Assembly (NCBI GenBank): GCA_021786315.1
Contig: JAJYNN010000002.1
Span: forward strand, 166,160 to 202,401
Source of the DNA: a bacterium
GTDB lineage: Bacteria > Patescibacteriota > Microgenomatia > Daviesbacterales > UBA10151
Length of the DNA: 36,242 nt
Reading direction: 5' to 3'
Shown here: piece by piece, positions 1,057 to 36,242 of the stretch
How the letters are laid out: the number at the start of each line of letters is the position of its first letter
Position numbering within the stretch: the first letter of the stretch is position 1
The notes under the pieces: generated by a model
What the model was told of the DNA's origin: nothing
Databases searched by the model: none
Seen by the model: the letters and a program-made list of their open reading frames with translations, nothing else
Program-made: the position numbers and the translations under genes

Positions 1057-1085
1057 GTGTGTTGGAAAGTTAAGTTTTTTAGTAT

Positions 1086-1279
1086 GCGTCTTTGGTGGCA
1101 AAGACGCCCAAAGCCACTTTGACGGGAACGGTCCCTAAATTTGTCTGCGGTTTTGTCGGGGGAAAGCTGCCCCCTCGAACAGTTCGTCCGGCATCCCCCT
1201 GACGAAAACCTTGCCAAATTTTTAACGGGCTTGCGTTCCAGTCAAAGAGGAATAGGTCTGTGTTCCTGAGTGGGCAAAG
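1086..1279 (+). ncRNA. Structured intergenic element, copy 1 of 3 (unclassified candidate ncRNA or structured repeat)
   Basis: 5' hairpin gcgtcttt-GGTGGC-aaagacgc (1086-1107). Closing helix ctttgac (1117-1123) / gtcaaag (1241-1247). Inner helix ggttttgtcggggg (1149-1162) / ccccctgacgaaaacc (1195-1210). Alignable with 7741-7950 and 19841-20099, with compensatory changes in the helices. Confidence 0.5.
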
Positions 1280-1336
1280 ATACAGAAAGTAAGTTTTATC
1301 GCAGATTTATTGTGGGTTGGGGAATATAATCAGTGC

Positions 1337-3513: not shown

Positions 3514-3600
3514 AATTTCCAATTTCTAATTTTCAATTTTTAATGAATTATCAATGTCAAAATGTTTAAAACATTGGAAATTAGTAATTAAGAGTTAAAA
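3514..3600. repeat. AT-rich intergenic word-repeat block (AATTTTCAA / TTTCTAAT words)
   Basis: aatttccaatttctaattttcaatttttaatgaattatcaatgtcaaaatgtttaaaacattgg. The segment taatgaatt.tc.atgtc..aatgtttaaaa.attgg is shared with 13813-13880. Confidence 0.6.
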
Positions 3601-4883: not shown

Positions 4884-5005
4884 AATTTTAAATTTTAAAG
4901 CTCAAATTTTCAAATAATTTTCAAATTCAAATTTTAAAACATTCAAAATTTAGATTTCACTTAAAATTGAAAATTTAAAATTTAGATTTTCTAGTGTAAA
5001 CTAGA
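4884..5005. repeat. AT-rich intergenic word-repeat block
   Basis: ctcaaattttcaaataattttcaaattcaaattttaaaacattcaaaatttag...aaaattgaaaatttaaaatttag. Contains both forward (ttttcaaa) and inverted (ttgaaaa) words. Confidence 0.55.
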
Positions 5006-7698: not shown

Positions 7699-7740
7699 TT
7701 CAGATTAAATCTCTTGAATTGAAAAGGTATGTTTTTAAAT

Positions 7741-7950
7741 GCAACTTTGGTGGCAAAGTTGCGCAAAGCCACTTGCAGTGAAAGTCGACCTAAAACCTTC
7801 ATCAGTTGTCTAGCGGGAACTTTACCCTTCGGAAATTCGGCTACTTCGTAGCGTCAGTTTCCGCTTTCCCTGCTGCCAACTGACTTGGTTTTTTAACGGT
7901 CTTTGTTTCAATGCAAGGGGAATAGAAGTTTGAGTTCCAGTGGGCAAAAG
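7741..7950 (+). ncRNA. Structured intergenic element, copy 2 of 3
   Basis: Hairpin gcaacttt-GGTGGC-aaagttgc (7741-7762). Closing helix cttgca (7772-7777) / tgcaag (7912-7917). Helices cagttg (7803-7808) / caactg (7877-7882) and cggaaa (7830-7835) / tttccg (7858-7863). Small hairpin gcta-cttcg-tagc (7840-7852). Confidence 0.5.
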
Positions 7951-8114
7951 AAAACTTTATTGACTTATCCACATTAGCAGAAATCCCGGTGGAAAAGAAA
8001 AAGTGTGTCTTGGATTAGGGCTTTAGAACAAGATAAATAGTACCTAGTATCCTCCAAAATAAACTACAAGCCTATGGTTTTTTGCTAGTAAAAAAACTAT
8101 AAGGTTATAAAATG

Positions 8115-8149: not shown

Positions 8150-8550
8150 GATGTTTAATTTTGGCCAAAAGTCAAAGGGGAGACTCACCAGAATTGCCCA
8201 AAAACGGATTGATCCGGGTTTGGAGCAAGTGAGAAAACTTTTGACGAGCAGCGACCAAAGGTTAATTCTGATGGTTCGAGGCTAAATCAAATTATAGGGG
8301 AGACATCGAAAAAGGTTCCTTGGAAGCAGACGGACCAAGGAATCTTTTTCGAGTACATTAAAAAAGACCACAAAAAAGAGCATTTAGATAGTTACTACCC
8401 GCCAGCAACTGCGTAGCTGTGGGCGGGGAACTATCGCAAGGCTCTTTTATTTGAGCACAAAAAAGAGCATTACTACCGCAGACGGACTCGAATAGCAATG
8501 CCCTTTATTAATTTCGAGAAGATGATTTTCGAGCAGAAAAATCATCTTTC
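8150..8550 (+). ncRNA. Candidate small RNA locus: a series of long hairpins downstream of the 8115 promoter
   Basis: Four hairpins: 8171-8245 (nested helices), 8306-8352 (18-bp stem), 8374-8448 (24 bp in 4 helices) and 8518-8549 (10-bp AT-rich stem followed by TTTC). No ORF of 60 aa or more. Confidence 0.4.
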
Positions 8551-8632
8551 TAAATAATAAGATTTCACATTTTGGAAGTCTTGTCAATAGGTCTTTTTAG
8601 GGAAAAAGGGAGTTGGGATTGTGATTTAGGTC

Positions 8633-8663
8633 GGGAATCCATCTAGGGCAGGGATGGGTTCCC
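8633..8663 (+). promoter_or_regulatory. Conserved hairpin with a GGGCAG loop upstream of the first LPxTG gene
   Basis: gggaatccatc-tagggcagg-gatgggttccc. A counterpart at 15454-15482 has compensatory stem changes. Confidence 0.45.
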
Positions 8664-8725
8664 AACTTGAGTCATAATCCCTTTTTTGTTTCTTAACCCA
8701 TAACCTCAAACACCCCAGATTTTAT

Positions 8726-12946: not shown

Positions 12947-13812
12947 AGCTATTATTGGGGTTTTTAGTACTAATTTTAGGGTCTATTCCAACTACCGCCT
13001 TTGCCCAGCAGATAGGTACGGAACCGATAGACGGAACAGATTTGGTGCCGATTGCCCAAGTAGACAGCAATCCTTTTTCGGGAACGGACTTGGTGCCAAT
13101 TGGCCAGGTGGGGACAGAGCCTATTTCGGGAACTGGGGTGATCCCTGTGGGACAAGTGGGGACGGAAGTAATTCCTACGCCTATACCTCAGCCCCCGGTG
13201 ATCCAACCGCCCCCGGTGGTGGTTGTGCCTCAGCCGCTTCCCGCCCCCATTCCTATCAACAACACTTTTAATCCGACGATAAATAACTCACCCGCTTTTA
13301 ATAATGCCGTGGATATCAGTAATACGCTGGCCCAGGCTCAGTCCCAAAGGCAGGGCCAAAATGCCATTGCCAATGCCAATGCCAGAACAGGCCCCATCAC
13401 CATTAATGCCCCGGCTGCTCAGCCCCAGGTCGTGACTGCGGTCCAGCCGGTCCAACCCATACAAACTGTCCAGAGTGTTCCGGTGCAGGTAGTCCAAAGT
13501 GTTCCCCAGCCGGCGGAAACCATTCCGATTGTGGTGGCTCCGGCGACCCAGACTGTCCCGGTGCAAACTACCCAGCAGGTCCAAACAACGCCTGTTACCC
13601 AGGTAGCCCAAAAGACTCCGGTGGTAACTTCCACAGGAACTGCTCCGGTGGCGGTCCAGCAGCTGCCCCAAACCGGGCCTCCCGCAGCAGCCTGGGCGCT
13701 TTCAGGATTGATCCCCTTCGGGTTACGGTTACGCAGCTTTGGCAAAAAAGTTCAGGGGGATGAAAACAACCCCAGCTTTATCTGGCAAAAAAGGGAATTT
13801 GATAAAAATTAA
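12943..13812 (+). CDS. Secreted LPxTG-type surface protein, paralog A3
   Basis: Signal peptide MKLLLGFLVLILGSIPTTAFA, GT(E/D)(P/L)I repeats, QNAIANANARTGPITINAP, then LPQTG + TM + FIWQKREFDKN. Confidence 0.8.
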   Translation: MKLLLGFLVLILGSIPTTAFAQQIGTEPIDGTDLVPIAQVDSNPFSGTDLVPIGQVGTEPISGTGVIPVGQVGTEVIPTPIPQPPVIQPPPVVVVPQPLPAPIPINNTFNPTINNSPAFNNAVDISNTLAQAQSQRQGQNAIANANARTGPITINAPAAQPQVVTAVQPVQPIQTVQSVPVQVVQSVPQPAETIPIVVAPATQTVPVQTTQQVQTTPVTQVAQKTPVVTSTGTAPVAVQQLPQTGPPAAAWALSGLIPFGLRLRSFGKKVQGDENNPSFIWQKREFDKN

Positions 13813-13880
13813 ATTCTCAATTTTAAATTTCTAATGAATTTTCGATGTCTTAATGTTTAAAAATTGGTAATTAAAAATTT
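13813..13880. repeat. AT-rich intergenic word-repeat block
   Basis: attctcaattttaaatttctaatgaattttcgatgtcttaatgtttaaaaattggtaattaaaaattt. Shares a ~37-nt segment with 3541-3577. Confidence 0.6.
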
Positions 13881-16569: not shown

Positions 16570-16659
16570 TAATTTAATTCTCAATTTTACAATTTTCAAT
16601 TTTTAAATAATTTTCAAAATCTAAATTTCCAAACAGCTTGAAAATTCGGTCATTGAAAA
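16570..16659. repeat. AT-rich word-repeat block between convergent genes
   Basis: ctcaattttacaattttcaatttttaaataattttcaaaatctaaattt...cttgaaaattcggtcattgaaaatt. The forward and inverted words can pair, so it could act as a bidirectional terminator. Confidence 0.55.
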
Positions 16660-18340: not shown

Positions 18341-18452
18341 TTGCAATTTTCAATTTCTAAGACTCAATTTTCAATGAATTTTCAAGGCTATAATTTATAA
18401 ATTTCCTTTTGAGAATTTAGTAATTGGTCCTTCAGTGAAAATTGGTAATTGT
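18341..18452. repeat. AT-rich word-repeat block in the rho upstream region
   Basis: ttgcaattttcaatttctaagactcaattttcaatgaattttcaagg...gaatttagtaattggtcc..gtgaaaattggtaattg. Confidence 0.55.
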
Positions 18453-19830: not shown

Positions 19831-19840
19831 TTTTTGTATT

Positions 19841-20099
19841 CACGCTTTTGGCCGCAAAAGCGTGGTAAAACTCTGCTCGCAGAAAGTCGCCCTCAGGCTT
19901 TGCCTGGCACTCACTTCGTTCGTACTAAACCTCGTCGTTTTCTAGTCGGGGGCTCACCCCCTCGGAAATTCTCTCGCTTCGCTCGGTCAGTTTCCGGTTC
20001 CCCCTGACAGAAAACTCCTCGGTTTTTAACGGGCTTGGTTTCAAAGCGAGCAAAAATTACGCTCCTAGTGGCTTTGGGCGTCTTTGCCATCAAAGACGC
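19841..20099 (+). ncRNA. Structured intergenic element, copy 3 of 3, carrying an extra inverted terminal module
   Basis: Hairpin cacgctttt-GGCCGC-aaaagcgtg (19841-19864). Closing helix gctcgc (19875-19880) / gcgagc (20046-20051). Helices gttttct..gtc ggggg (19937-19952) / ccccc tgac agaaaac (20000-20015) and cggaaa (19963-19968) / tttccg (19991-19996). The 3' 32 nt (20068-20099) are the reverse complement of 1086-1117 at 31/32 positions. Confidence 0.5.
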
Positions 20100-20121
20100 A
20101 ATCCGTTTTGTGATAAAATAG

Positions 20122-22185: not shown

Positions 22186-22257
22186 GGGCCCGTGGTCTAG
22201 CGGTACGACGTCTCTATGGCATAGAGAAGGTGAGGGGTTCGACTCCCCTCGGGTCCA
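22186..22257 (+). tRNA. tRNA-Ala (anticodon GGC)
   Basis: Manual cloverleaf fold. Acceptor GGGCCCG/CGGGTCC with the G3:U70 alanine identity pair. Anticodon arm TCTCT-ATGGCAT-AGAGA. T arm AGGGG-TTCGACT-CCCCT. No encoded CCA. Confidence 0.88.
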
Positions 22258-22261
22258 CCCA

Positions 22262-22332
22262 GGGCTTGTAGGTAAACGGCATACCGGTACATTCGCATTG
22301 TACAGTTCCGGGTCCAATTCCCGGCAAGTCCA
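22262..22332 (+). tRNA. tRNA-Ala (anticodon CGC)
   Basis: Acceptor GGGCTTG/CAAGTCC with G3:U70. D arm GGTA-AACGGCA-TACC. Anticodon arm GTACA-TTCGCAT-TGTAC. T arm CCGGG-TCCAATT-CCCGG, an unusual T loop. Lies 4 nt after the previous tRNA. Confidence 0.8.
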
Positions 22333-22401
22333 CAAATACTTGTTTGTTGAGAAATACAGAAGGATTTACCCTAACTACTTACTGCTGATCCCTTAATACT
22401 A

Positions 22402-24836: not shown

Positions 24837-24890
24837 GCAAGGTGACGCCTTGCGCCGCAAGGTGACGCCTTGCGTGGAGCTTGCGTGGAG
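24837..24890 (+). repeat. Two tandem REP-like hairpins plus an 11-nt direct duplication
   Basis: gcaaggtgacgccttgc twice (24837-24853, 24857-24873), then cttgcgtggag twice (24869-24879, 24880-24890). Confidence 0.75.
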
Positions 24891-24930: not shown

Positions 24931-25617
24931 TTACTCTTCGATTACTAAGGGGTAAATCAAATTTGAGATTTCATTGTTATCTGTTTGCCCTACAAAGGAT
25001 TTATAGGAAAGCTTGGGATTTGTTTGGGAAAAGAATGCCAGAATCTCATCTGGTTTAACCCAAGCCCCTTGATGACTACCCAAATATGCTGGGTAGGAAG
25101 ATGGTTGGCCTTGGCCGCTTAAACTATATTTGTCAAAGGATTGTTTATGGATATAGCGGGAAAGTTCCAAAAGCTGGGCATCTGTTTGGACTAAAACAGC
25201 TTTGTAGGTCCCCTGGTAGAGTGCTCCCACCCGCTTGTATTTTTTATTAAAGTACATGGTATATCTTGTACCTAAAGAGTTCATAAACTTATCAATAGCT
25301 CCGGCACTTTTTTGTTTAACCAAAAGGTGAAAATGGTTGGGCATTAGGCAATAGGCGAGAAGGGTAATATCATCTGCAAAGTTATTCATCCTGATCTGTT
25401 TTCTTAGCCCGTCTCTTTCGGGAATGGGTGTTCGGGGGTTTGCTAATTGTTCCATTAAGGAAACACTATCCTTGGGTGTCAGATAAGTTTTTAGGTAGGA
25501 GATAAAGACTGAATAGTCCTGTTGGTCCTGGAAGATGGAGCGCTTTTCAACCCCTCTATTATATATATGGTAGTAACCCTCTTCGACATATTGTTTAACT
25601 ACATTTTTTGCTGGCAT
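24931..25617 (-). CDS. HUH / Y1 tyrosine transposase (IS200-like or REP-associated RAYT-like), 228 aa
   Basis: YHIYNRG N-terminal motif, HUH motif in LLAYCLMPNHFHLLV, and a catalytic-Tyr context SRYIHKQ. Confidence 0.82.
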   Translation of the reverse strand: MPAKNVVKQYVEEGYYHIYNRGVEKRSIFQDQQDYSVFISYLKTYLTPKDSVSLMEQLANPRTPIPERDGLRKQIRMNNFADDITLLAYCLMPNHFHLLVKQKSAGAIDKFMNSLGTRYTMYFNKKYKRVGALYQGTYKAVLVQTDAQLLELSRYIHKQSFDKYSLSGQGQPSSYPAYLGSHQGAWVKPDEILAFFSQTNPKLSYKSFVGQTDNNEISNLIYPLVIEE

Positions 25618-25645: not shown

Positions 25646-25671
25646 CGTGCAAGGTGACGCCTTGCGTGGAG
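25646..25671 (+). repeat. REP-like hairpin upstream of the transposase gene
   Basis: cgtgcaaggtgacgccttgcgtggag. It combines the 5' flank of the first downstream copy with the 3' flank of the second. Confidence 0.75.
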
Positions 25672-25681
25672 ATCGAGGGAA

Positions 25682-28600
25682 TTAAGGGGCTCCTGTTGCC
25701 GGAGCAAAGTTAATGGCTCCGTTGTTATAGACGTTTTTGACCTGGCTAGCTGTTAAGGCATAGTTATAAATCCTTACATCATCAATCTGGCCGGGAAATA
25801 ATTGCCCCGCTCCGTTACCATAACTGCCAATATTGGCAACTTCTCCCGCGGTGGATGTCGGCGTTCCGGAATCGCTGGTGGTACTAACTAAAACCCCGTT
25901 AACATATAATTTTGTAGTTGTGCCATCCCAAGTACCTACCACATAACTCCAGGTATTGATTGCCGCATCGTCAGTACTGTAGGTCCAGCTGCCGCTGGCA
26001 TCGGGATTAAAAGCCCATTTGCTGGTGTTGCTAATTTTTAGGCGGTATCCGTTGGGGGTTCCGTCTCCTCTCTGGAAAATTACATACCAACCAGTGTTAT
26101 TAGTAGGGTAAACCCAGGCGGAAACGCTAACCTGGCTTGTTTGATCCAAGCTGGTACCGCTACCTATGTTTACATAATCATCAGTCCCGTTAAAGTAGAG
26201 GGAAGAATTTCTTTTTCCGGTTGCTCCTTTACTCCAAGCGGTGGTATTAGTTCCGTCGCTGCAAGTTCCCATAGTCGTGCTTCCACTATGGGTACCGGAA
26301 TTGTTATTGCCGGAAGAATCATGCAAAGTGTCTCCCTGGCATTCATCAAACTTCCACCAGCCAACAGGCCCACCCCGGTTATAATCATAGGCAATTTGGG
26401 CAGGAGTACGAAGGTATTTATAAATTCTCATTTGGTCAATTGACCCGTTGAGCCAGTTGCCGTTGCCGTTTCCGCCTAGAAGGGCTGACAGGCTATTGTC
26501 TATGTTTCCACTGCGGCTGGCTATAGAGGTGGGGGTGCCGTCCTGTTTACCGTCAATGTAAATTGTCCCGTTCCCATCCCTGTCAAATGCGGCAACTACA
26601 AAATGCCATTTGTTATTATCAATCCTTGATGTTGAGGTAAAGGTTGTAAATCCTAAACTGTCTTCAATTGTCGGATTTAACGTACCGTCACTCTTAATTG
26701 TCAAGCGCCAACCGATATCTCCTCCGTAACCCGCGCCTTTTCTGATAATTGCTTTTTCCTCAGAAACTGTCCCTGTTTTTACCCAGGCCTGCACAGTAAA
26801 ATCTCCGGTTCCCATATCCAAATCTCCACTGGCAGGGTCTCCCAAATCCACATAATCATCAGTGCCATTAAATTTCCCAGCTTTACCTACTTTGCCAGAA
26901 GTCCAATGGGAACCGGTTCCGTTCCAGGCTCCGTCATTACCTGACCCGGAAGTGTCACAAACATCATTTGTTCCGCCAGAACAGGTATCATCCTTGCCTT
27001 CCTCAAAGTCCAAACGGGCTACCGGGGGAGCACAGGAAGTTGAATCTCCGGGCACGCAGTATTCCTGGTTGGCAGAATTTTTGTCATAAGAAGAATTGCT
27101 TCCCAAAGCCCCCATTTGTAAAGATGAACCATGATTGTACTCAAGTTTGACCTCATCAGCCGTTAAGGCATAGTTGTACATTTTTACTTCATCCATTGTA
27201 CCGGCAAAATATTCATTGGCGATATTGTAGCCAATAGTGACATCGGTGTTGTTGTCGGTAATTGAGACGGTGGCCGCGGTACTATTATTCAGAGCCCCAT
27301 CCAGGTAAAGTTTCAAGGTTGCTCCGTCCCAGGTTAAGACCAGATGGTGCCAGACACCAGCCGGAAGTTGGGCTGGACTTTGAGTAGAATAGACAACTGT
27401 GTCATTACCTTTGACGATTCCTCTAATGGCGTAAGAGTCGGTACTTCTTTGATATTGGAGCTCGAAGGGAATGCCGGTTGTACTCCAGGCGGAACGCTTG
27501 GAAATAATTGTTCTCCAGCAGGTGGCGACCGAACAATATGAATCCAACTTGGTCCAGGCGGAAATGGTAAAGCCGGTTAGCCCGTCAAAGGTCGATTCAT
27601 TTGATGTACTGACATAATCGTCGGTCCCGTCAAAGATTAAACCTTTCCCGTATTTACCTGCTTGGGTCCAGCCGGAGGTGGCAGTGGCAGGGGAGGTCAT
27701 GTTGGTTAAAGTGCCATTTAGAGCCGAACCGCCGTTGCCGGAGTTGTGAGCGGTTGTACCTTGTCCCTCATCAAATTTCCAATAACCAAGAGGGGATCCC
27801 ACTGGTGAACCCACGTTAGGATGGGATCCGTTCATATCCGAGACAATTTGTTTTGATGTCCGGGCATAATTATAAATTTTAATATCATCAAGCAAGCCAT
27901 TATAAGGGTAGGCTCCGTTGGTATAGGCACCAATTAAGATGGGATTGGCACCAAGATCCATACTTTTGTTTAAGGTAGTGCTATTGATCTGGACACCGTT
28001 TTGATAGGATCTAAGCACTGATCCATCATAAGTAAAGGTAATATAAGTCCAGGTATTATTACTAAGATTATTCGTTACTACGCTGTTGCCTCCGCTGTTA
28101 CCGCCGCTTTTGAAATACATCACTAAATTGCTGGCAGTATTAGCTTTCCAGATTCCCCAGCTGGTACCCCACTTAGTGATGAGGTCCTGTTCATTTCCGC
28201 TAAAAGCTTTGGGATTCATCCAGAAAGAAACAGTTAACATTCCTGTATCCAAGCTATTGGCATCAGCCACTGATACATAATCATCCGTACCATCAAATGA
28301 ACAGGCACCTCCGTATTTACCCTGGGCTTGAGAACAGTCAGTATGGTTATAGGTAGTCCCGTTGTTACCGTTACCTGAAATATCAACAATAGTCTGGGAA
28401 GCCCCTTTAACATGATCATCCATCTTCCAGTATCCCACTGGTCCCGGTGCCCAATTGTAGAGGTTGGAAACCTCAGTAGGTGAAAGGGCCCGGTTATAAA
28501 TCCTGACTTCATCAAGTTTGCCGTTAAAATCCCGGTTGGCCGTGGGGCTCCCGTAACGGGCGCCAAGGTAAAGATTATTGGCGCTGGAATCAATGGCGCC

Positions 28601-31048
28601 GCTTGCAGCATCGCTGTTTTCCAAAACGCCGTTTAAGTAAATCTTCATCATTGATCCGTCGTAAACCCCTACAAGGTGATACCAGGTACCAGTGGAAAGA
28701 GACGTAGAAGTGTATTTAGAGTAAGCTTTTGTGCCTGATTGATAAATGGCAAACTCAACCTTATTGCCGTTAATCCACATAGCGTAAGCTCCCGAGGCTT
28801 CGCTTGAATCCTCACCCTTGCTGATGATCCGGTCATAAGAGTTTGCATCAACGCTGGCGGATAAGTTAATCCAGGCAGAGACAGTAATGTTACCGGTAAT
28901 ATCTAAGGAAGAACCGGTCCCGGCATCAACATATTGGGTGCCGTCAAAAGAACCTCCGTTGCCGAACTTACCTGTGGCAGCGCCTGCAGGTTTAGTGCAA
29001 CCTACACCCGCGCAGCCTGCTGTACCATTATTGCTGTTACCTGAAGCATCTAAAACATCTGCAGAGGAGCCGGACCAGGAAGCCTCATCCATTTTCCAGT
29101 AACCTACTAGGCCATTGGATAAATAATCTTGGGTGGAGGCCCCCAAAACCGCTCCTGCGCCTGAATGGGCAGAGGCATTGGCTTTACCGGCTAAATAATC
29201 AGTTTTAATCTGGGCTGCACTTCTGGCATAGGGATAAATCTTGGGTTCATCAATAAAACCACCAAAGTAATCTTGGTGAGCAGCTGATACAAGTCTGTCA
29301 CCAAACTCAAGCGGATCATTATTGGCTGAATAGACATAGCTTGGTGTTAACAATGATCCTTGGTCAAGTTTTCCATCGATATAGATTGTGATATTTTGGT
29401 TGGCTGCAACAGCAGTATCAGTTGTTATTGTTACAGAATAATAATGCCATTTATTATCGTTAACATCACTACTACTAGCCCTTTGAACATTTTGACCAGA
29501 ACCATTTTTAATTTGTACGCCTAATTTATTGGCAGTGGTATTATTGACATTAATTAACCACCCAGCTCCTTTGGCCATTAAGTATCCACCTGAGGTTTGG
29601 CCAGTTCTAAACCAACCAGAAGCAGTGAAGGTAGTATTGGCAAAATCAAAATTAGACTCGTTTGCATTAGATATATAACTACTTGATCCATCAAAATATA
29701 AACATTTGCCGGCCACACACCTGTCTTCCGGCTGCCAGGTGGGGAGGGTGGCTCCCGATAATGTTCCATCATTATTAGAAGATGAAGAATCTTGGGCATT
29801 AGTGCCTTGGCCGTCGTCAAATTTCCAGTATCCTACCGGTCCCGGGCCTTGTTCCTCAGTCCCTGCTGAGGTTGTGGGCTTGGAAATGGTTGAGGCATAA
29901 CTGGCAAGATTGCCGGGACTGGAATAAAGCTGGGAGATTTCGGAGGTAGACAATGCCCGGTTGTAGACCCTGACATCATCAATTGACCCTGACCAGCCCC
30001 GGTTACCCATGCTTTCGTTGTCCATGCCAATCCTGACACCTGAGGATTCGGTCAGGGTAGCCCCGGCAGTGGTATCGGTAGCCGAGCCTTCCTGAACCCC
30101 GTTAACATAAATGTAGAGTTTATTGTCAGAAGTACTCCTGACACCCATGACATGGATCCAGGCATTGGAAGAGGCGTCGGTGGTAGACTCCACATACGGG
30201 GAATTGGTGCCGTCAGTAATTTGGAAAACGATATGCCCCGAAGGGGTAGTTTCAAAAAACCGGTAACCTTTGGTGCTGTATTTATTGACAATATACCGGT
30301 AATCGTCCTTGACTGAAGTTTTAATCCAGGCACTGACTGTCATGGAACTGGTGGTAATGTCGGCGGCACTGGTAGGGGAAACACTGACGTATTGGGAAGT
30401 GGTACTGCCGTTGCCTGCAGCTCCTCCTGTAAGGCTGGCGGCATTGCTGTATTTGCCTGCAGCTCCTCCTGTGGGGACAGTACAGCCTGTATAATAGCAA
30501 CTGGCTGTGCCGTTGCCCCCGCTTATTGAATTATCTTTAACTTCTCCGGCAGTCCCATTCCAGGAAGCCTCATTTAGAGCCCAATAGCCAACTAAACCGT
30601 TAAATAACCTGAATTTATTACTATCCGAGGCAGCCGGTGCTGTGGGGTTGCCGTAGTACATATACATGGTATAGGTGGTGGTGTTTTTAGGGACCAAATC
30701 AGCCATCACCCAGACTTTGGTGGAGGCGGTGCCGCACCCGGAATCTATATAGTAGGGGAGCAGCTTTCCCCCCTGGTTGGTAAACCTCAAATCCTGGCAG
30801 GAAGATTGGAATTTACCGGTGGCGGAAGTATCAACGGTGACCAGGGTTTCCAAATCAGTGATATCGTTGGCGCTGGAGGTGATAGTCAAAGTAATGGCTT
30901 TCCGGTAAAGCCAATTTTCATTAAACCAGGCAGCCATTGCGGGTTTGGAAAAATATGAGTAAATAAATATCCCAATTCCGGCAACCAAGAAGGCAGACAA
31001 AAGAAAGAGAACACTCTTAATTTTCAATTTAAAATTTACAATTTTCAT
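25682..31048 (-). CDS. Giant surface protein G1: signal anchor, DUF2341-like domain, seven LamG (Laminin_G_3) repeats
   Basis: N-terminal MKIVNFKLKIKSVLFLLSAFLVAG. WLYRKAITLT...LRFTN is DUF2341-like. Seven repeats each end in (I/L/M)D(D/E)(V/P/I)(R/K)(I/V/M)Y(N/P/K)(R/Y)(A/L)(L/R)(S/T)xxxx, e.g. DDVRVYNRALSTSEISQLY. The ATG at 31046-31048 is preferred over 31066. Confidence 0.88.
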   Translation of the reverse strand: MKIVNFKLKIKSVLFLLSAFLVAGIGIFIYSYFSKPAMAAWFNENWLYRKAITLTITSSANDITDLETLVTVDTSATGKFQSSCQDLRFTNQGGKLLPYYIDSGCGTASTKVWVMADLVPKNTTTYTMYMYYGNPTAPAASDSNKFRLFNGLVGYWALNEASWNGTAGEVKDNSISGGNGTASCYYTGCTVPTGGAAGKYSNAASLTGGAAGNGSTTSQYVSVSPTSAADITTSSMTVSAWIKTSVKDDYRYIVNKYSTKGYRFFETTPSGHIVFQITDGTNSPYVESTTDASSNAWIHVMGVRSTSDNKLYIYVNGVQEGSATDTTAGATLTESSGVRIGMDNESMGNRGWSGSIDDVRVYNRALSTSEISQLYSSPGNLASYASTISKPTTSAGTEEQGPGPVGYWKFDDGQGTNAQDSSSSNNDGTLSGATLPTWQPEDRCVAGKCLYFDGSSSYISNANESNFDFANTTFTASGWFRTGQTSGGYLMAKGAGWLINVNNTTANKLGVQIKNGSGQNVQRASSSDVNDNKWHYYSVTITTDTAVAANQNITIYIDGKLDQGSLLTPSYVYSANNDPLEFGDRLVSAAHQDYFGGFIDEPKIYPYARSAAQIKTDYLAGKANASAHSGAGAVLGASTQDYLSNGLVGYWKMDEASWSGSSADVLDASGNSNNGTAGCAGVGCTKPAGAATGKFGNGGSFDGTQYVDAGTGSSLDITGNITVSAWINLSASVDANSYDRIISKGEDSSEASGAYAMWINGNKVEFAIYQSGTKAYSKYTSTSLSTGTWYHLVGVYDGSMMKIYLNGVLENSDAASGAIDSSANNLYLGARYGSPTANRDFNGKLDEVRIYNRALSPTEVSNLYNWAPGPVGYWKMDDHVKGASQTIVDISGNGNNGTTYNHTDCSQAQGKYGGACSFDGTDDYVSVADANSLDTGMLTVSFWMNPKAFSGNEQDLITKWGTSWGIWKANTASNLVMYFKSGGNSGGNSVVTNNLSNNTWTYITFTYDGSVLRSYQNGVQINSTTLNKSMDLGANPILIGAYTNGAYPYNGLLDDIKIYNYARTSKQIVSDMNGSHPNVGSPVGSPLGYWKFDEGQGTTAHNSGNGGSALNGTLTNMTSPATATSGWTQAGKYGKGLIFDGTDDYVSTSNESTFDGLTGFTISAWTKLDSYCSVATCWRTIISKRSAWSTTGIPFELQYQRSTDSYAIRGIVKGNDTVVYSTQSPAQLPAGVWHHLVLTWDGATLKLYLDGALNNSTAATVSITDNNTDVTIGYNIANEYFAGTMDEVKMYNYALTADEVKLEYNHGSSLQMGALGSNSSYDKNSANQEYCVPGDSTSCAPPVARLDFEEGKDDTCSGGTNDVCDTSGSGNDGAWNGTGSHWTSGKVGKAGKFNGTDDYVDLGDPASGDLDMGTGDFTVQAWVKTGTVSEEKAIIRKGAGYGGDIGWRLTIKSDGTLNPTIEDSLGFTTFTSTSRIDNNKWHFVVAAFDRDGNGTIYIDGKQDGTPTSIASRSGNIDNSLSALLGGNGNGNWLNGSIDQMRIYKYLRTPAQIAYDYNRGGPVGWWKFDECQGDTLHDSSGNNNSGTHSGSTTMGTCSDGTNTTAWSKGATGKRNSSLYFNGTDDYVNIGSGTSLDQTSQVSVSAWVYPTNNTGWYVIFQRGDGTPNGYRLKISNTSKWAFNPDASGSWTYSTDDAAINTWSYVVGTWDGTTTKLYVNGVLVSTTSDSGTPTSTAGEVANIGSYGNGAGQLFPGQIDDVRIYNYALTASQVKNVYNNGAINFAPATGAP

Positions 31049-31074
31049 TAAATTTTCAAAACACAATTTTCAGT
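31018..31074. repeat. AT-rich word-repeat block overlapping the G1 start
   Basis: ttaattttcaatttaaaatttacaattttcattaaattttcaaaacacaattttcag. The first 11 codons of G1 (MKIVNFKLKIK) are encoded by it. Confidence 0.5.
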
Positions 31075-31449
31075 CTAGTCTCTTAAGGAAGAAACAATTT
31101 TCTGAAATATCATTGTTAATTCTTGTGCTTCTTGTCCTAGCAGCTCAATTTCTGTTTTCTTCTCTGGAAAACAAACAACCATCATTCTTAGCCAGTGTTT
31201 AGTTTCCTGGGCTTCTTTCTTGCAGATAAAAATCTTATTTTGAAAGTCTTTTTTTGAGCTTGCGCCGTTTGCTTCCATATAATTGGCTCCAATACTGGTT
31301 CCCGACCTAATAATTTGGCTTATAATTGGTGTTGAAATTAAATCTGATCTTAAGTTTTTACAAAAATTGATGATTTGTTCCCCAAACCGGCTTGTGCGTT
31401 CTTCAAGATCGTATTTTTTGGATTGTGAATTGTTTAATTGGTAATTCAT
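31075..31449 (-). CDS. Four-helix-bundle protein (TIGR02436 family, the so-called 23S rRNA intervening-sequence protein)
   Basis: Family-typical motifs RSGTSIGANYMEANGASSKKDFQNKIFICKKEAQETKHWL. Markedly AT-rich relative to the flanking genes. Confidence 0.82.
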   Translation of the reverse strand: MNYQLNNSQSKKYDLEERTSRFGEQIINFCKNLRSDLISTPIISQIIRSGTSIGANYMEANGASSKKDFQNKIFICKKEAQETKHWLRMMVVCFPEKKTEIELLGQEAQELTMIFQKIVSSLRD

Positions 31450-31483: not shown

Positions 31484-34400
31484 TCATGGATTTCCTCCTG
31501 TTGTTGGGCCGTAACGGACCGCAAAGCCCTCGTTGTAAACATTCTTAATTTGGGTAGCAGTTAAGGCATAGTTGTAAAACCTGACATCATCAATCTGGCC
31601 ATTGAAGTAGCTGTTCATTGTGCCTGTATTCCCGATATGGAAGTGGGTGTAAGAGAAGTTGCCGGAAGTTTGGGAGTCGGAAGTATCCAAAACACCGTTA
31701 ATATATAGCTTCCTTGAGGAATTGGGGGAATCCTGGATCGCCGCAAAATTGTACCAGGTGCTGTTTGAAACTGTTTTGTTGCTGCACAATTCATGGTCAC
31801 CCGCATTATAAATATGCATGCATAACTTATTGCTCCCATTAACATAAACCCTAAAGTTATAGTCATTATTGGCATCGGGGGAGTCGGAAATAATTGTTCT
31901 CAAGCCTGAGCCTGCCGCATAAAACCACCCGGTGGCGGAATAAGTCTGGGTGGAGGCATTGGTGGAGGGGCCGGAGGTATTAACATAATCATCAGTGCCG
32001 TCAAAGTTAAGTGATGCTCCGTATTTGCCGTTTCTGCCGGTATACCAGGCGGTGGTGCCGGAAGATGAGCAGGTTCCGGCACTAGTTTGAGTGCCTGTAC
32101 CGCCGATACTAATTGATCCGCTGTAGCCGTTACCTGAAGCATCATTGGCTGTTAGTCCCTGGCATTCATTAAACTTCCACCAGGCCAAAGGCCCACCCTT
32201 ATTGTAGTCATAGGCCACCTGGGCAGCAGTCCGGGCATAATTAAATATCCTGATTCCGTCAAGTTGACCATTAAGAGGATAGGCTGACCCAGCTACATCT
32301 CTGCCAAGATATAAAGTATTGTTATTAGTACCAAAAGAAACAGTGGCGCTGGTATTGGTGGTTTGTAAAACTCCGTCAACGTAAATTTTCATAGTATCGC
32401 TGGTGTCGTCAAAGGTGCCTGCCACATAGTGCCATTTACCATCAGCTACAGAAGTTGTACCATCAGTATAATAAACTGAAGTAGTTGCCCACGCAGCTCC
32501 TGTCCCAATGAGCATTGTTATAGATCCGTTTACGGCTCCGCCTACATCAGCAGAACTAACAACACTTAGCTGATAAGCATTAGTTTTTCTGGCAACTACC
32601 TGAGTGCTGGTGGAATTTGTTTTTACCCAACCTTCTATTGTTATACCTCCGGTTATATCAAGGTCGTTGATGGCAACCGAATCATCTGTGCCATTGAAGT
32701 TTCCTGCCCAACCGGATTTTCCTGGTACCCAGTGTTTAGTGCCGGTTCCGTTCCAGGCTCCGTCATTACCGTTGCCGGAAGTGTCACAAACATCATTTGA
32801 GCCTCCGGCGCAGGTATTATCCCGGCCTTCGTTAAAGTTCCATTCAGCAACCGGCGCCGCACAGGAAGTGGAATCCCCGGGCACGCAATATTCCTGGTTG
32901 GCAGCGCCCTGGGCGTAAGTTGTATTAGTCCCGCCGGCCCCCAGCGTTATGCTTTTACCCTGGTTCATATCCAGTTTGACCTCATCGGCAGTTAGGGGAT
33001 ACTCATAAACTTTAACCTCATCGGCTGATCCCACCAGGTAGTTGCTGGCTACCCAGGAATCCCGGCCTATCTTTAAGGATGACTGGTACTGGGTGGTTTC
33101 TGTGGCCTGCATGTTAGAAAACGTCCGGGTTTCACAAAGCTTGCCGTTTAAGTAGAGGGACATGGTTTGGCCGCTCCAATCCCTGACGGCGGCAATGTGC
33201 ACCCATTGGCTGGTATATCCCGAGTAATTACATTGGGCGTAGCCGACTGTTCCGCTTCCTACGAATTGATAGTCAAAATTAATATACCCGGATTTGGCTC
33301 CCCACCATTGGTTAATTGAATAAAATCCGATATTCCAGCCACGGGAGCCGGCTCCCCAGGCGCCTTCGGAAAGGACGGTTTCTCCGGTGGTGGCGCTGCC
33401 GACATTTATCCAGAATGTGGCGGAGAAGCTTTTTTGGGTAAAGAGGTTGGTGGGTTCGGAAGTGTCAACATAATCCCCGCCGTCAAAACTTAAGGCCCTG
33501 CCGTATTTGGCGTTGGGAGTCCAGGCCGGGTCATCGGTGGAGGCGTTAGCGTCTGCACCCCGGGTTCCGTTGTATCCCGATCCGGCGCTGCCAGCATTAT
33601 TGACAACTTGTCCCTGGCCCTCGTCAAACTTCCACCAGGTAGCAGGTGAACCCACAGGTGAGCCAACAGAGGGATGCCCTCCGTTCATATCCGAGACAAT
33701 TTGTTTTGGTGTCCGGGCATAGTTATAAATTTTCAAGTCATCAATTAGGCCGTTAAAATAACTCCAGCCGCTACTTGATGGAGAATAATATCCAATGACA
33801 GCATTTCCTGAATTACTGACACTACTAGTTACAGTAGTGATGCTTTGAGGTGTGCCGTTTGGGGAACCGTCAACGTAAACAGCGCTGTTACCGCTTCTGT
33901 CAAATGTAGCTGTTATGTGATGCCATTTACCGTCTGTGACTGTGGAGGAGGATTTGGTGGTAACGGCAGTGGTACCGTCTTTGACAAATGCCCAAACAAG
34001 ATTATCGTTGCCAACCCCAAGCAGATATCCGGTATTACCATCTGATGATCTTTTATCAATAATATCTTGGTAGGCTCCTGTGGCGCTGGTTTTGATCCAG
34101 GCGGAGATGGTAAAACTACTAATGCCAAAATCCAGGCTACCGTTTGCTGGATCAGTCACATCTACATGGTCGTCTGTGCCGTTAAAACTACAGCTCCCAC
34201 CATATTTTCCGGGAGATTTCGAACAGTCAATACCTGTGCCGGCAGTTGTCCCATTGTTGCCGTTACCTGAAGAATCAACAATGGTTTTGGAGGCCCCTTT
34301 TATTCCATCATCCATCTTCCAATAACCAACAGGTCCCGGTGCCCAATTGTAGAGGTTGGAAACCTCAGAAGGGGAGAGGGCCCGGTTATAAATGCGGATC

Positions 34401-36242
34401 TCATCCATTAGACCAGTAAAACCGTATCTGCCGTTATATCCGTCTTCCCCGATATATACATCGGAACTGGATGTGGCGATTGTGGAAATTGATCCTGTTA
34501 GGGTACCGGCCTGGTTAACTCCATTAAAGTAAATGTTGGACACCCCGTTATTAAAAGTTGCGACTATGTGGGTCCAGGTAGAGAGTGGAAGAGTGGAGGT
34601 GGTGGTGAGGTTTTGCTTGGTATCTACTCCATTACTTAAAGATAAAGTAACTGTTTTATCACTTTCGACACGCAGCTCATATTGGCTGCCGGAATATCCT
34701 CCAGCGATTGTTCCTTTGGTGAGAATACCGGCTTTACTGGAAGGAGCGCTCGTCAAATTAACCCAGGCAGAAAGGGTGACTTGAGAGGTTGGAGTATTTA
34801 AGCTGTCACTGCTTGTGACCTGAACATACTGGCCATTAGTGTCTGTAGGATAGGCTCCGTCTCCGGTAAAACTCCCCCCGTTGCCAAATTCACCGGTAGC
34901 GGTAGTGGGGATGCCGTTGCCTGTGCCGGTTTGTTTGGCCTGACCGTTGTTGCCGTTGCCGGAGGAATCAATGACTTCCCCGGTAGTGCCATTCCAGGAA
35001 GCCTCATCCATCTTCCAGTAACCCACCAGGCCGTTGGAAAGGTAATCCTGGGTTTTGGCACCTAAAACTGTGCTGGTCCCGGCATGGTTGGCAGCTCCCA
35101 TCTTCCCGGCATCATAATCTGTCTTAACCTGGGCTGCACTCCGGGCATAGGGATAAACTTTGGGTTCGTCAATGAAACCGCCGAAGAAATATGCCCCCGG
35201 AGCCGAGGTGACGGTAGCTCTGGTTGCGATAGTAAAAGGCTCAGTGGTGGTGACCTGGGTGCCGCTGAAAGTAGCCGTTGTTTCACCAACCTTGCCGTTG
35301 ACATAAACCCTTAAGGTAGTGCCGTCAAAATCCCCGACCACATAAGCCCAGTTGTTCAAGGATAAAGCCCCGGTGTATTTGGCGATATAGACCGTTGTGC
35401 CGGTATTGACGGTTAAAAACTCTACGTCCGTTCCGTTAGTGCGGAGTTCGTATTGGGTTCCGGCGGTATTCCCGTTACTTTTGGCCATGATGACATGGTA
35501 GGAGGTGAGGTTGGTGGGCCTAATCCAGGCGCTTAAGGTTATGGCTCCGGTAACATTTAAGCTTGAACCGGTGCCGGCATTAATATAGTTACGTGTCCCG
35601 TCAAAGCTTAAGCATTTTCCGGAAATACACTGGCTTTCCGGCTGCCAGGTGGCACCAATAATTTGGCCATCATTGCCATAATCACAAGTGGAGGTGGAAG
35701 CGTGAGCAGTCCCATTCCATTTGTGTAGACCATTGCCGGTCAAGGATCCATCACAATAGGGAGTAGCGGATGAGGCTTGTTCCAACTGGACTCCGTCAAG
35801 ATAAATAGTTCCTGCATAAGTGCCTCTGGTATTGATATATATCACCACACTCGTATCTGTTGCCCCGGTGGTAAAAGTTACGGTTTTTTTAGTCCAGGCG
35901 CTGGTGGCGGAGAAATTATTGCTATCGGAGAGGATGTTACTGCTGCTGCCGTTAACCTGGATTTTAAAGTAACCATTAGGATCTTTATAAAATGTAGTAA
36001 AAGTGTAGGTGGTGTTTATGGAGGTGGAAATTGATACATAAGTTCCTTTATAGGCAGTAGCCGGGGATAAGGTGACACTCATAGCATAGTTTCCAAAAAG
36101 GCCGCCGCTGACTTGGGCAATACTGGAGTTGGCGCTGTCAGTATTCCATCCTGTTGTATTTGTTTCAAAAGAAGGGTTAGTAACTAAGTTGGTGGTAGTC
36201 CCGGTTTTTTGCCAAGCGGTGTTTTTGGCGGCATAACCTTGT
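31484..36242 (-). CDS. Giant surface protein G2 (5' end outside the window): CBM4_9-like N-terminal region plus six LamG repeats, colinear paralog of G1
   Basis: The frame stays open upstream of the listed ATG through base 36241 (..NLVTNPSFETNTTGWNTDSANSSIAQVSGGLFGNYAMSVTL..). Six LamG repeat ends (e.g. MDEIRIYNRALSPSEVSNLY) occur in the same order as G1 repeats 2-7. Confidence 0.88.
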   Translation of the reverse strand, partial: QGYAAKNTAWQKTGTTTNLVTNPSFETNTTGWNTDSANSSIAQVSGGLFGNYAMSVTLSPATAYKGTYVSISTSINTTYTFTTFYKDPNGYFKIQVNGSSSNILSDSNNFSATSAWTKKTVTFTTGATDTSVVIYINTRGTYAGTIYLDGVQLEQASSATPYCDGSLTGNGLHKWNGTAHASTSTCDYGNDGQIIGATWQPESQCISGKCLSFDGTRNYINAGTGSSLNVTGAITLSAWIRPTNLTSYHVIMAKSNGNTAGTQYELRTNGTDVEFLTVNTGTTVYIAKYTGALSLNNWAYVVGDFDGTTLRVYVNGKVGETTATFSGTQVTTTEPFTIATRATVTSAPGAYFFGGFIDEPKVYPYARSAAQVKTDYDAGKMGAANHAGTSTVLGAKTQDYLSNGLVGYWKMDEASWNGTTGEVIDSSGNGNNGQAKQTGTGNGIPTTATGEFGNGGSFTGDGAYPTDTNGQYVQVTSSDSLNTPTSQVTLSAWVNLTSAPSSKAGILTKGTIAGGYSGSQYELRVESDKTVTLSLSNGVDTKQNLTTTSTLPLSTWTHIVATFNNGVSNIYFNGVNQAGTLTGSISTIATSSSDVYIGEDGYNGRYGFTGLMDEIRIYNRALSPSEVSNLYNWAPGPVGYWKMDDGIKGASKTIVDSSGNGNNGTTAGTGIDCSKSPGKYGGSCSFNGTDDHVDVTDPANGSLDFGISSFTISAWIKTSATGAYQDIIDKRSSDGNTGYLLGVGNDNLVWAFVKDGTTAVTTKSSSTVTDGKWHHITATFDRSGNSAVYVDGSPNGTPQSITTVTSSVSNSGNAVIGYYSPSSSGWSYFNGLIDDLKIYNYARTPKQIVSDMNGGHPSVGSPVGSPATWWKFDEGQGQVVNNAGSAGSGYNGTRGADANASTDDPAWTPNAKYGRALSFDGGDYVDTSEPTNLFTQKSFSATFWINVGSATTGETVLSEGAWGAGSRGWNIGFYSINQWWGAKSGYINFDYQFVGSGTVGYAQCNYSGYTSQWVHIAAVRDWSGQTMSLYLNGKLCETRTFSNMQATETTQYQSSLKIGRDSWVASNYLVGSADEVKVYEYPLTADEVKLDMNQGKSITLGAGGTNTTYAQGAANQEYCVPGDSTSCAAPVAEWNFNEGRDNTCAGGSNDVCDTSGNGNDGAWNGTGTKHWVPGKSGWAGNFNGTDDSVAINDLDITGGITIEGWVKTNSTSTQVVARKTNAYQLSVVSSADVGGAVNGSITMLIGTGAAWATTSVYYTDGTTSVADGKWHYVAGTFDDTSDTMKIYVDGVLQTTNTSATVSFGTNNNTLYLGRDVAGSAYPLNGQLDGIRIFNYARTAAQVAYDYNKGGPLAWWKFNECQGLTANDASGNGYSGSISIGGTGTQTSAGTCSSSGTTAWYTGRNGKYGASLNFDGTDDYVNTSGPSTNASTQTYSATGWFYAAGSGLRTIISDSPDANNDYNFRVYVNGSNKLCMHIYNAGDHELCSNKTVSNSTWYNFAAIQDSPNSSRKLYINGVLDTSDSQTSGNFSYTHFHIGNTGTMNSYFNGQIDDVRFYNYALTATQIKNVYNEGFAVRYGPTTGGNP

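Follow-up and report, generated by a model that had tools for sequence, protein, structure and literature searches.

Genomic setting of the repeated element

The window analysed in this study is a 36,242-nt stretch of DNA whose Rho protein has its best matches in Candidatus Daviesbacteria (Microgenomates, CPR), with the nearest relative just 82% identical. Members of the CPR (Patescibacteria) have small, densely packed genomes, and to our knowledge little has been written about the repeats and non-coding RNAs in them. Three copies (c1, c2 and c3) of a non-coding element with a core of ~165-215 nt lie on the plus strand of the window, downstream of radA (stop codon ending at 1007), a PIN-TRAM yacL-like gene (7698) and rho (19830), respectively (Table 1). 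All three plus-strand segments named in a preliminary description of this DNA were recovered, which corresponds to a density of three copies per 36 kb.

Two further copies, found with a pattern taken from c1-c3, bring the number of independent copies to five. The first (L003) is in a Candidatus Daviesbacteria MAG, between convergent genes and 3' of a gene for a ferric-reductase-like membrane protein. A separate long hairpin (GGGGTAGGA...TCCTACCCC) is found in this locus at ~3090-2985 (minus strand), between the upstream gene and the element. The second (L007, the same as L093) is on a Daviesbacteria-like metagenome contig, 11 nt past pth. All five copies begin 10-200 nt past a stop codon, and four of the five are co-oriented with that gene.

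Table 1. Positions and properties of the element copies and associated features in the window
Feature	Position	Strand	Description
c1 core	1085-1247	+	Downstream of radA
c1 P0 hairpin	1085-1108	+	Arms 1085-1094/1099-1108; TGCGTCTTTG-GTGG-CAAAGACGCC; 5' module type A
c1 rod P1-P6	1117-1247	+	P1 1117-1123/1241-1247; covariance model 126.5 bits; conserved 3' block TTTTTAACGGGCTTGCGTTC at 1219-1238; P6 in short form (CGAA/TTCG)
c1 3' tail	1248-1284	+	GGAATAG..GTTCC hairpin, then AGTGGGCAAAG; homologous to c2 tail only
c1 direct repeat, upstream arm	1065-1078	+	GAAAGTTAAGTTTT; same motif upstream of c2 and c3
c1 direct repeat, downstream arm	1285-1297	+	GAAAGTAAGTTTT
c2 core	7740-7917	+	Downstream of yacL-like gene
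c2 P0 hairpin	7740-7763	+	Arms 7740-7749/7754-7763; TGCAACTTTG-GTGG-CAAAGTTGCG; 5' module type A
c2 rod P1-P6	7772-7917	+	P1 7772-7777/7912-7917; covariance model 137.1 bits; additional apical hairpin GCTAC/GTAGC; P5 is GGGAA/TTCCC, compensatory relative to GGGGG/CCCCC in other copies
c2 3' tail	7918-7955	+	Homologous to c1 tail
c3 core	19841-20052	+	Downstream of rho
c3 P0 hairpin	19841-19864	+	Arms 19841-19850/19855-19864; CACGCTTTTG-GCCG-CAAAAGCGTG; 5' module type B
c3 rod P1-P6	19874-20052	+	P1 19874-19880/20046-20052; covariance model 80.1 bits; 34-nt insertion specific to c3 at 19893-19926
Inverted partial type-A 5' module (P0 + linker)	20067-20100	-	Abuts c3; 27.7 bits, E 3e-6
Extra segment of rho-M23 spacer relative to related genomes	19831-20105	+	From spacer comparison

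Several other features of these loci were recorded. An AT-rich intergenic repeat family (AATTTTCAATTTTTAATGAATTTTCAA...) occurs at 3514-3570, 4884-4972, 13805-13861, 16577-16633, 18345-18401 and 31019-31075, at 575-635 of L007, in the rho-M23 spacer of the relative L092, and in many spacers of this genome and its relatives. Logan contig L001 starts inside a copy of this repeat, which could be a promoter, UP element or terminator region. Downstream of c2, a non-coding stretch at ~8290-8700 is conserved at the DNA level in three relatives, with identities of 81% to L060 (over 154 nt), 77% to L059 and 79% to L061. Several hairpins are present in this stretch, which lacks an Rfam match and may be an undescribed RNA or leader. 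The 44-aa ORF that precedes it (8151-8285) is conserved with a 45-aa gene in L061. A 620-nt ORF-free spacer with a REP-like motif and a long hairpin at ~2131-2168 (AAGGCCACC...GGTGGCCTT) separates a LytR_C gene from a cupin gene (spacer at 1708-2326), and in L060 and L061 no cupin gene lies between radA and the adjoining genes. The window also has two adjacent tRNA-Ala genes, 2 nt apart (22186-22259, GGC; 22262-22333, CGC), and two giant minus-strand ORFs with many internal repeats (25682-31066 and 31484-36082; 1794 and 1532 aa). The giant ORFs are 71-82% similar to each other in blocks, and a 23S_rRNA_IVP-family gene (31075-31449) lies between them.

Divergent copies share a single fold

The copies had been described as strongly diverged in primary sequence while retaining their relatedness, and both parts of this description hold. 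Identity in the structural alignment is 53-60%, and pairwise blastn, which is independent of any model trained on the copies, gave E values of 1e-6 and 3e-6 for c1-c2, 2e-8 for c2-c3, and 1e-4 for c1-c3. Copy c3 is 76% identical to L007, which comes from a different organism and a different locus, compared to 55-58% for c3 against c1 and c2.

Separate minimum-free-energy folds of the five copies gave one common architecture, consisting of a P0 hairpin of 9-10 bp followed by a long irregular rod (P1, P2a, P2b, P3, P4, P5 and P6). Folding-energy z-scores of the window copies were -3.8, -3.8 and -4.5, and none of 200 shuffles was as good. The P0 hairpin, the closing helix and the inner helices proposed in the preliminary description could each be located by coordinate, and the proposed cggaaa/tttccg helix is present. 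The three segments had also been said to align over their full length. However, positions 20052-20100, the final ~50 nt of the third, lack homology to the tails of c1 and c2. The c1 and c2 tails share ~40 nt (shuffle test, p=0; c1 tail versus c3, p=0.26), and L003 and L007 end at P1, without a 3' tail.

Covariation was assessed on an alignment of five sequences (c1, c2, c3, L003 and L007) fitted to the structure by hand. We used this hand alignment, with N padding (A5), because MAFFT alignments (A1-A3) mis-registered helices. On the hand alignment, 250 of 257 cells pair, and a double change is seen in 33 of 55 columns. MAFFT still displaced four P0 bases in two rows of A5, so the outer four P0 pairs were excluded from the count made with a counting tool. 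For the 51 pairs counted in this way, 97.5% of cells were paired compared to 78.8% in shuffles, and 29 pairs had changes on both sides compared to 12.5 in shuffles; none of 500 shuffles reached the observed values. On this hand-fitted alignment the helices are thus maintained via double substitutions, as had been claimed. When the partner was slid by +/-1 to 3 columns as a control, pairing fell to 38-58%. Given the independent folds and the slid controls, an artefact of hand fitting is unlikely. The stems vary in sequence yet stay Watson-Crick, and the fold is under selection.

Conserved blocks and exchangeable 5' modules

The rod contains near-invariant internal-loop blocks, namely GAAAGTCGMCCTAAA, TTTTTAACGGKCTTNGTTTC and YCGGGGG...CCCCCU...CCCCCUGR. 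The block TTTTTAACGGKCTT, which had been noted as conserved and single-stranded, is indeed conserved. However, it is half paired: its GGKC pairs with the GMCC of an equally conserved 5' block, GAAAGTCGMCC (GAAAGTCGMCCTAAA). The K and M positions covary, forming A-U in c2 and L007 and C-G in c1, c3 and L003.

It had further been suggested that a GGGGG run in c1 and c3 could pair with either of two CCCCC runs, as in a switch. The runs themselves are present in c1, c3, L003 and L007, and c2 has a weaker version (GGGAA / ACCCT / TTCCC), but the alternative structure finds no support in covariation. In c2, the sole informative copy, GGGAA covaries with the distal run (TTCCC) alone, and the proximal ACCCT did not follow the change, which leaves the switch idea unsupported. 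With the single covarying copy backing the distal pairing alone, we rejected this G5/C5/C5 switch. The proximal C-run (CCCCCU) is a conserved unpaired motif in the apical loop.

Two types of 5' module are found. In type A, the loop GGTGGC is followed by AAAGCCAC; this type is present in c1, c2, L007 and the inverted fragment that abuts c3, which is a 97% reverse-complement of 1085-1118 (shuffle test, p=0). In type B, found in c3 and L003, the loop GGCCGC is followed by AAAACTCT. The type of 5' module is independent of the type of body, as c3 (type B) and L007 (type A) are the pair that is 76% identical overall. Comparison of the copies shows an exchange of modules, both among copies and across organisms. 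A pseudoknot between the P0 loop and the linker (GUGGC/GCCAC) was also considered. It was dropped, being confined to type A, without a type B counterpart and sterically doubtful.

Pairing pattern and strand

G.U pairs account for 6 of 250 pairs (2.4%). One of them is in a doubtful terminal pair, one is in the broken P4 of L003, and three represent a single U.G position kept in c2, c3 and L007. All of the G.U pairs are on the plus strand, and there are no A.C mismatches. Among changed cells, 2 are one-sided and 47 are two-sided, and the changes in pair type (24 transition-type versus 36 flip-type) are close to a random mix. This pairing pattern is unusual for a structured RNA and is as in DNA hairpin elements. 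In REPIN hairpins, which are mobilised as single-stranded DNA, compensatory changes are common (PMC3116915).

We rejected folding energy as a means of assigning the strand, as the folding energies of the two strands are equal. The plus strand is also G-rich along the whole window, and the directions of transcription and replication are therefore inseparable here. No sigma-70-like promoter or intrinsic terminator common to the copies was found, and CPR promoters may differ from that consensus; if transcribed, the element would be part of the upstream message. The confinement of wobbles to the plus strand and the co-orientation of four of the five copies fit a role as RNA. With G.U pairs very rare, one-sided changes scarce and the two strands equal, the folded molecule could as well be single-stranded DNA as RNA.

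Searches for known families and further copies

The element had been reported to resemble no known RNA family, and a check against the Rfam 15 covariance models agrees with this. At the gathering score, the whole window gave two tRNAs only, and the best sub-threshold E values in permissive scans of each copy were 0.05-0.07, for snoRNA and riboswitch models that are unrelated. We conclude that this is a genuine structured family, and one that is new to Rfam. 6S RNA, attC, a plasmid single-strand origin and a group II intron remnant were rejected on architecture, context or the lack of an Rfam match.

A strict sequence pattern run over public collections returned one genome, that of L003. A looser pattern returned 55 metagenome loci, of which L007 alone is a member of the family. 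About 25 of the 55 belong to an unrelated, highly repeated family (...TTTTTAACGGGCTTTTGTTCCAATCGATCC...) that matched through chance sharing of a 22-mer. This family comes from a few metagenome projects and resembles an interspersed repeat of one large genome (loci L005, L008, L010, L012, L014, L016, L018-L020, L024, L030, L033, L035, L038, L040, L041, L043, L047, L053-L055 and L057).

The viral contigs scanned held no copies, and none were found by blastn against plasmids and phages. A covariance model (R1) detected no new full copy in the loci searched. The model likewise found no copy in sampled loci of other Daviesbacteria and Microgenomates (L059-L061, L091, L092, L094 and L099-L104), compared to three in 36 kb here. 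A search of the literature on repeats and non-coding RNAs of Daviesbacteria or Patescibacteria returned nothing relevant.

Copies are absent from orthologous sites

The tie to radA, yacL and rho drawn in the preliminary description is not conserved, as relatives with the same gene order lack the copies. Five relatives retain the order rho, M23/LysM peptidase, beta-lactamase-like gene. Their rho-M23 spacers are 146 nt (L059), 97 nt (L060), 48 nt (L061), 23 nt (L091) and 95 nt (L092), and that of the window is ~300 nt. Neither nhmmer nor the covariance model detected an element in these five rho-M23 loci. The entire 23-nt spacer of L091 (TTCTGTGTTAAAATAGG...) aligns with 20106-20121 of the window (TTTTGTGATAAAATAG), just right of c3, and the extra DNA in the window is therefore the segment from 19831 to 20105. 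After radA and yacL, the next gene begins within 5-157 nt in relatives. Between pth and DUF3105, L007 and L093 have the element, and the spacer of a 62% relative, L094, is empty. These comparisons of gene neighbourhoods show the copies to be insertions, not conserved parts of the adjoining genes.

In assemblies of independent samples, contigs with 100% identity to the window break off within each of the three copies. Contigs end inside copies at 7769, 7880 and 19866 (two samples), with further breaks at 1101 and at a contig start at 20008 (two samples). The simplest cause would be that stretches of at least 30 nt recur at other places in this genome or population, and it is very likely that further near-identical pieces exist there. 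Strain variation could also explain the breaks.

The 18-20 nt upstream of P0 are alike in c1-c3, with GRAAAGKTAWG, a T-run and then ~4 nt (c1-c3, p=0.002; c1-c2, p=0.012). In c3 this motif is the native end of rho, where it encodes KEVK-stop, and it is kept in relatives without the element, which points to a target preference and not a carried flank. A 13/14-nt direct repeat brackets c1 (p=0.007). No significant direct repeat flanks c2, c3, L003 or L007, and the c3 flanks TTTTTGTAT and TTTTGTGAT are merely loosely alike. Neither TA nor a fixed-length target duplication was seen at the insertion sites; 8-13 nt upstream of P0, the five sites read TTAAG (c1), TTAAG..TAA (c3), GTATG (c2), CTAAC (L003) and TTAAT (L007).

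Comparison of the reverse complement of the 3' tail with the 5' end gave no indication of terminal inverted repeats in c1 or c2 (p 0.3-0.8, with p=0.31 for c1 and p=0.42 for c2). The inverted 5' module next to c3 matches the c1 type and not c3's own end (p=0.88). We also considered AGTGGGCAAAG as a deleted inverted P0, which would make it a terminal inverted repeat of c1 and c2; this was rejected, as the shuffle test was unsupportive.

A resident Y1 transposase with its own hairpins

The only mobile-element gene in the window encodes a 228-aa Y1 (IS200/RAYT-like) transposase and is located 5 kb from c3, at 24931-25617 on the minus strand (PF01797, E 2.8e-13; weak match to NF047646 REP_Tyr_transpos). 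The gene is flanked by copies of the hairpin CCACGCAAGGCGTCACCTTGC (also GCAAGGCGTCACCTTGC) at 25650-25663, 24858-24871 and 24838-24851. The same REP motif forms an inverted pair at 1021-1034/1044-1057, right after radA and upstream of c1, and occurs again at 2044-2057. No significant similarity was detected between the Y1-flanking hairpins and P0 or the conserved blocks of the element.

In L099-L101, a 79% homologue of the Y1 protein is encoded among the same neighbouring genes and next to the same hairpin, which suggests that Y1 is a resident, single-copy gene. A 63% homologue is found elsewhere (L102, L104), flanked by a different hairpin, CAGGGCCTCGCCCTG, and the enzyme family is widespread in Microgenomates. 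In the relatives with the Y1 gene and the same REP (L099-L101), no structured element was found in the 5.5 kb sampled. We regard the Y1 locus as an ordinary REP/RAYT-like system, and as a candidate partner of the element only in the loosest sense.

Discussion

Our preferred reading, which we hold with evenly divided confidence, is that the copies form a lineage-restricted, dispersed, non-coding and non-autonomous REPIN/MITE-like family in Candidatus Daviesbacteria, the folded single strand of which is recognised in trans. The element would spread via this folded single strand, and we lean towards DNA because nearly all pairs are Watson-Crick and the two strands pair alike. The conserved loop blocks, together with the P0 loop, may be what a trans-acting protein recognises on this strand. 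The landing site would be T-rich sequence just 3' of genes, preceded by a GAAAGTTAAG-like motif. After insertion, the element is probably co-transcribed with the upstream gene as 3' UTR, where it would form a very stable rod and a possible barrier to 3' exonucleases. Against mobility, the element has no transposase or other gene linked to it, terminal inverted repeats are inconsistent, and a target-site duplication is seen at c1 only.

Several known types of element share part of these properties. ERIC/IRU, Correia, RUP and BOX elements are intergenic and often co-transcribed, and they are imperfect palindromes that form long stem-loops and are absent from the orthologous sites of relatives. 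The Daviesbacteria element is likewise intergenic, stem-loop-forming and absent at orthologous sites, but it is without consistent terminal inverted repeats or target duplication. As in a classical MITE, it is small, non-coding, multi-copy and missing from orthologous sites; the terminal inverted repeats that a classical MITE has at both ends of every copy were not found. Typical MITE copies are similar in sequence, whereas copies of this element within one genome are 55-60% identical and the fold is nevertheless kept. The attC sites of integrons conserve structure over sequence, are found directly after ORFs in the same orientation, and act as folded single-stranded DNA. The element resembles them in conserving structure and not sequence and in its position 3' of ORFs. 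In contrast to attC sites, its neighbours are syntenic housekeeping genes and not cassettes, there is no integrase, and it lacks an R''/R' core pair, is larger and has an additional hairpin.

A possible but doubtful alternative is that the element is a host-functional structured RNA, either a 3'-UTR-derived small RNA or a cis-acting stability or termination element, which has been duplicated and folds on the plus strand only. The strong covariation, here on a hand-fitted alignment, is as expected for a structured RNA gene or cis-regulatory RNA, and the invariant loop blocks suggest a specific partner. Position and orientation (starts 10-200 nt past stop codons, four of five co-oriented), the wobbles (G.U on the plus strand, one U.G kept in c2, c3 and L007, no A.C), the conserved unpaired CCCCCU in the apical loop and the absence from Rfam are also consistent with such an RNA. 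However, a conserved genomic position across related species, also expected for such RNAs, is not seen: orthologous positions are empty in six relatives and the distribution is patchy. A candidate structured RNA was the reading of the preliminary description, which had named MITE-like behaviour as what would speak against it, and the copies largely behave as dispersed insertions, absent at orthologous sites. The copies also have no promoter or terminator in common, G.U pairs are at 2.4% with one-sided changes nearly absent, the minus strand folds equally well, and a partial inverted copy adjoins c3. The two readings are compatible, as a mobile element that also encoded a functional RNA would unite them.

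It is improbable that the element is an orphan guide-RNA module, that is, an omega-RNA of an IS200/IS605 TnpB or IscB, or a bridge or seek RNA of IS110/IS1111, without its protein gene. Its size (170-215 nt), its multi-helix fold with conserved internal loops and its 5' hairpin fit such a module. The similarity of the c1-c3 upstream flanks (GRAAAGKTAWG..TTTTT) is as expected for a sequence-specified target, and a clear duplication is missing at four of the five sites. An IS200/IS605 element with a TnpB/IscB omega-RNA would similarly combine a subterminal 5' hairpin, insertion beside a similar short motif and a structured body of ~200 nt. However, neither the window nor the loci of L003 and L007 contain a TnpB, IscB or IS110-type gene, and there is no match in Rfam 15, as far as that library covers guide-RNA families. 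The 3' ends vary among copies, leaving no fixed scaffold-to-guide junction, and covarying complementarity between loop and flank was not seen by eye. Both end hairpins of IS200/IS605 elements are in the same orientation, whereas this element has a 3' hairpin only in c3, and there it points the opposite way to P0.

We consider it similarly improbable that the element is of REPIN type and is mobilised as single-stranded DNA by the Y1 enzyme of 24931-25617 or by another enzyme of this kind encoded in the same genome. The proximity of a Y1_Tnp gene, 5 kb from c3 in the same window, speaks for this explanation, as do the breadth of the enzyme family in Microgenomates and the apparent residence of Y1 next to the same genes in the 79% homologue's locus. 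In common with REPINs, the element is short, non-coding, extragenic and multi-copy and forms a long hairpin, and the plus strand is G-rich along the window. In its Watson-Crick stems, a less conserved, paired spacer with compensatory changes is closed at the base by two conserved blocks that are inverted relative to each other, as described for REPINs (PMC3116915). On the other hand, it is 2-3 times longer (170-215 nt) and more complex than described REPINs, with an additional 5' hairpin and a conserved apical domain. It is not built from the REP that flanks the resident Y1 gene (GCAAGGCGTCACCTTGC), and those flanking hairpins are unrelated to P0 or the conserved blocks. Furthermore, L099-L101 have Y1 and the same REP with no element in the 5.5 kb sampled.

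The fold has been kept through ~45% divergence, with three copies in 36 kb, and the loci occupied differ between organisms. The family is therefore either a new type of intragenomic replicator that has persisted for long or the vehicle of a functional RNA. We think it unlikely, although worth stating, that the element represents a new class of functional structured nucleic acid on a CPR mobile element. Such a molecule could, for example, serve a recombinase or nuclease as guide RNA, recognition RNA or single-stranded DNA substrate, and its P0 loop types and invariant internal loops would specify protein binding and target choice. In practical terms, assemblies of these genomes break within the element. 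Should a partner protein come to light, the conserved loops together with the two types of P0 loop would provide a ready-made candidate recognition code.
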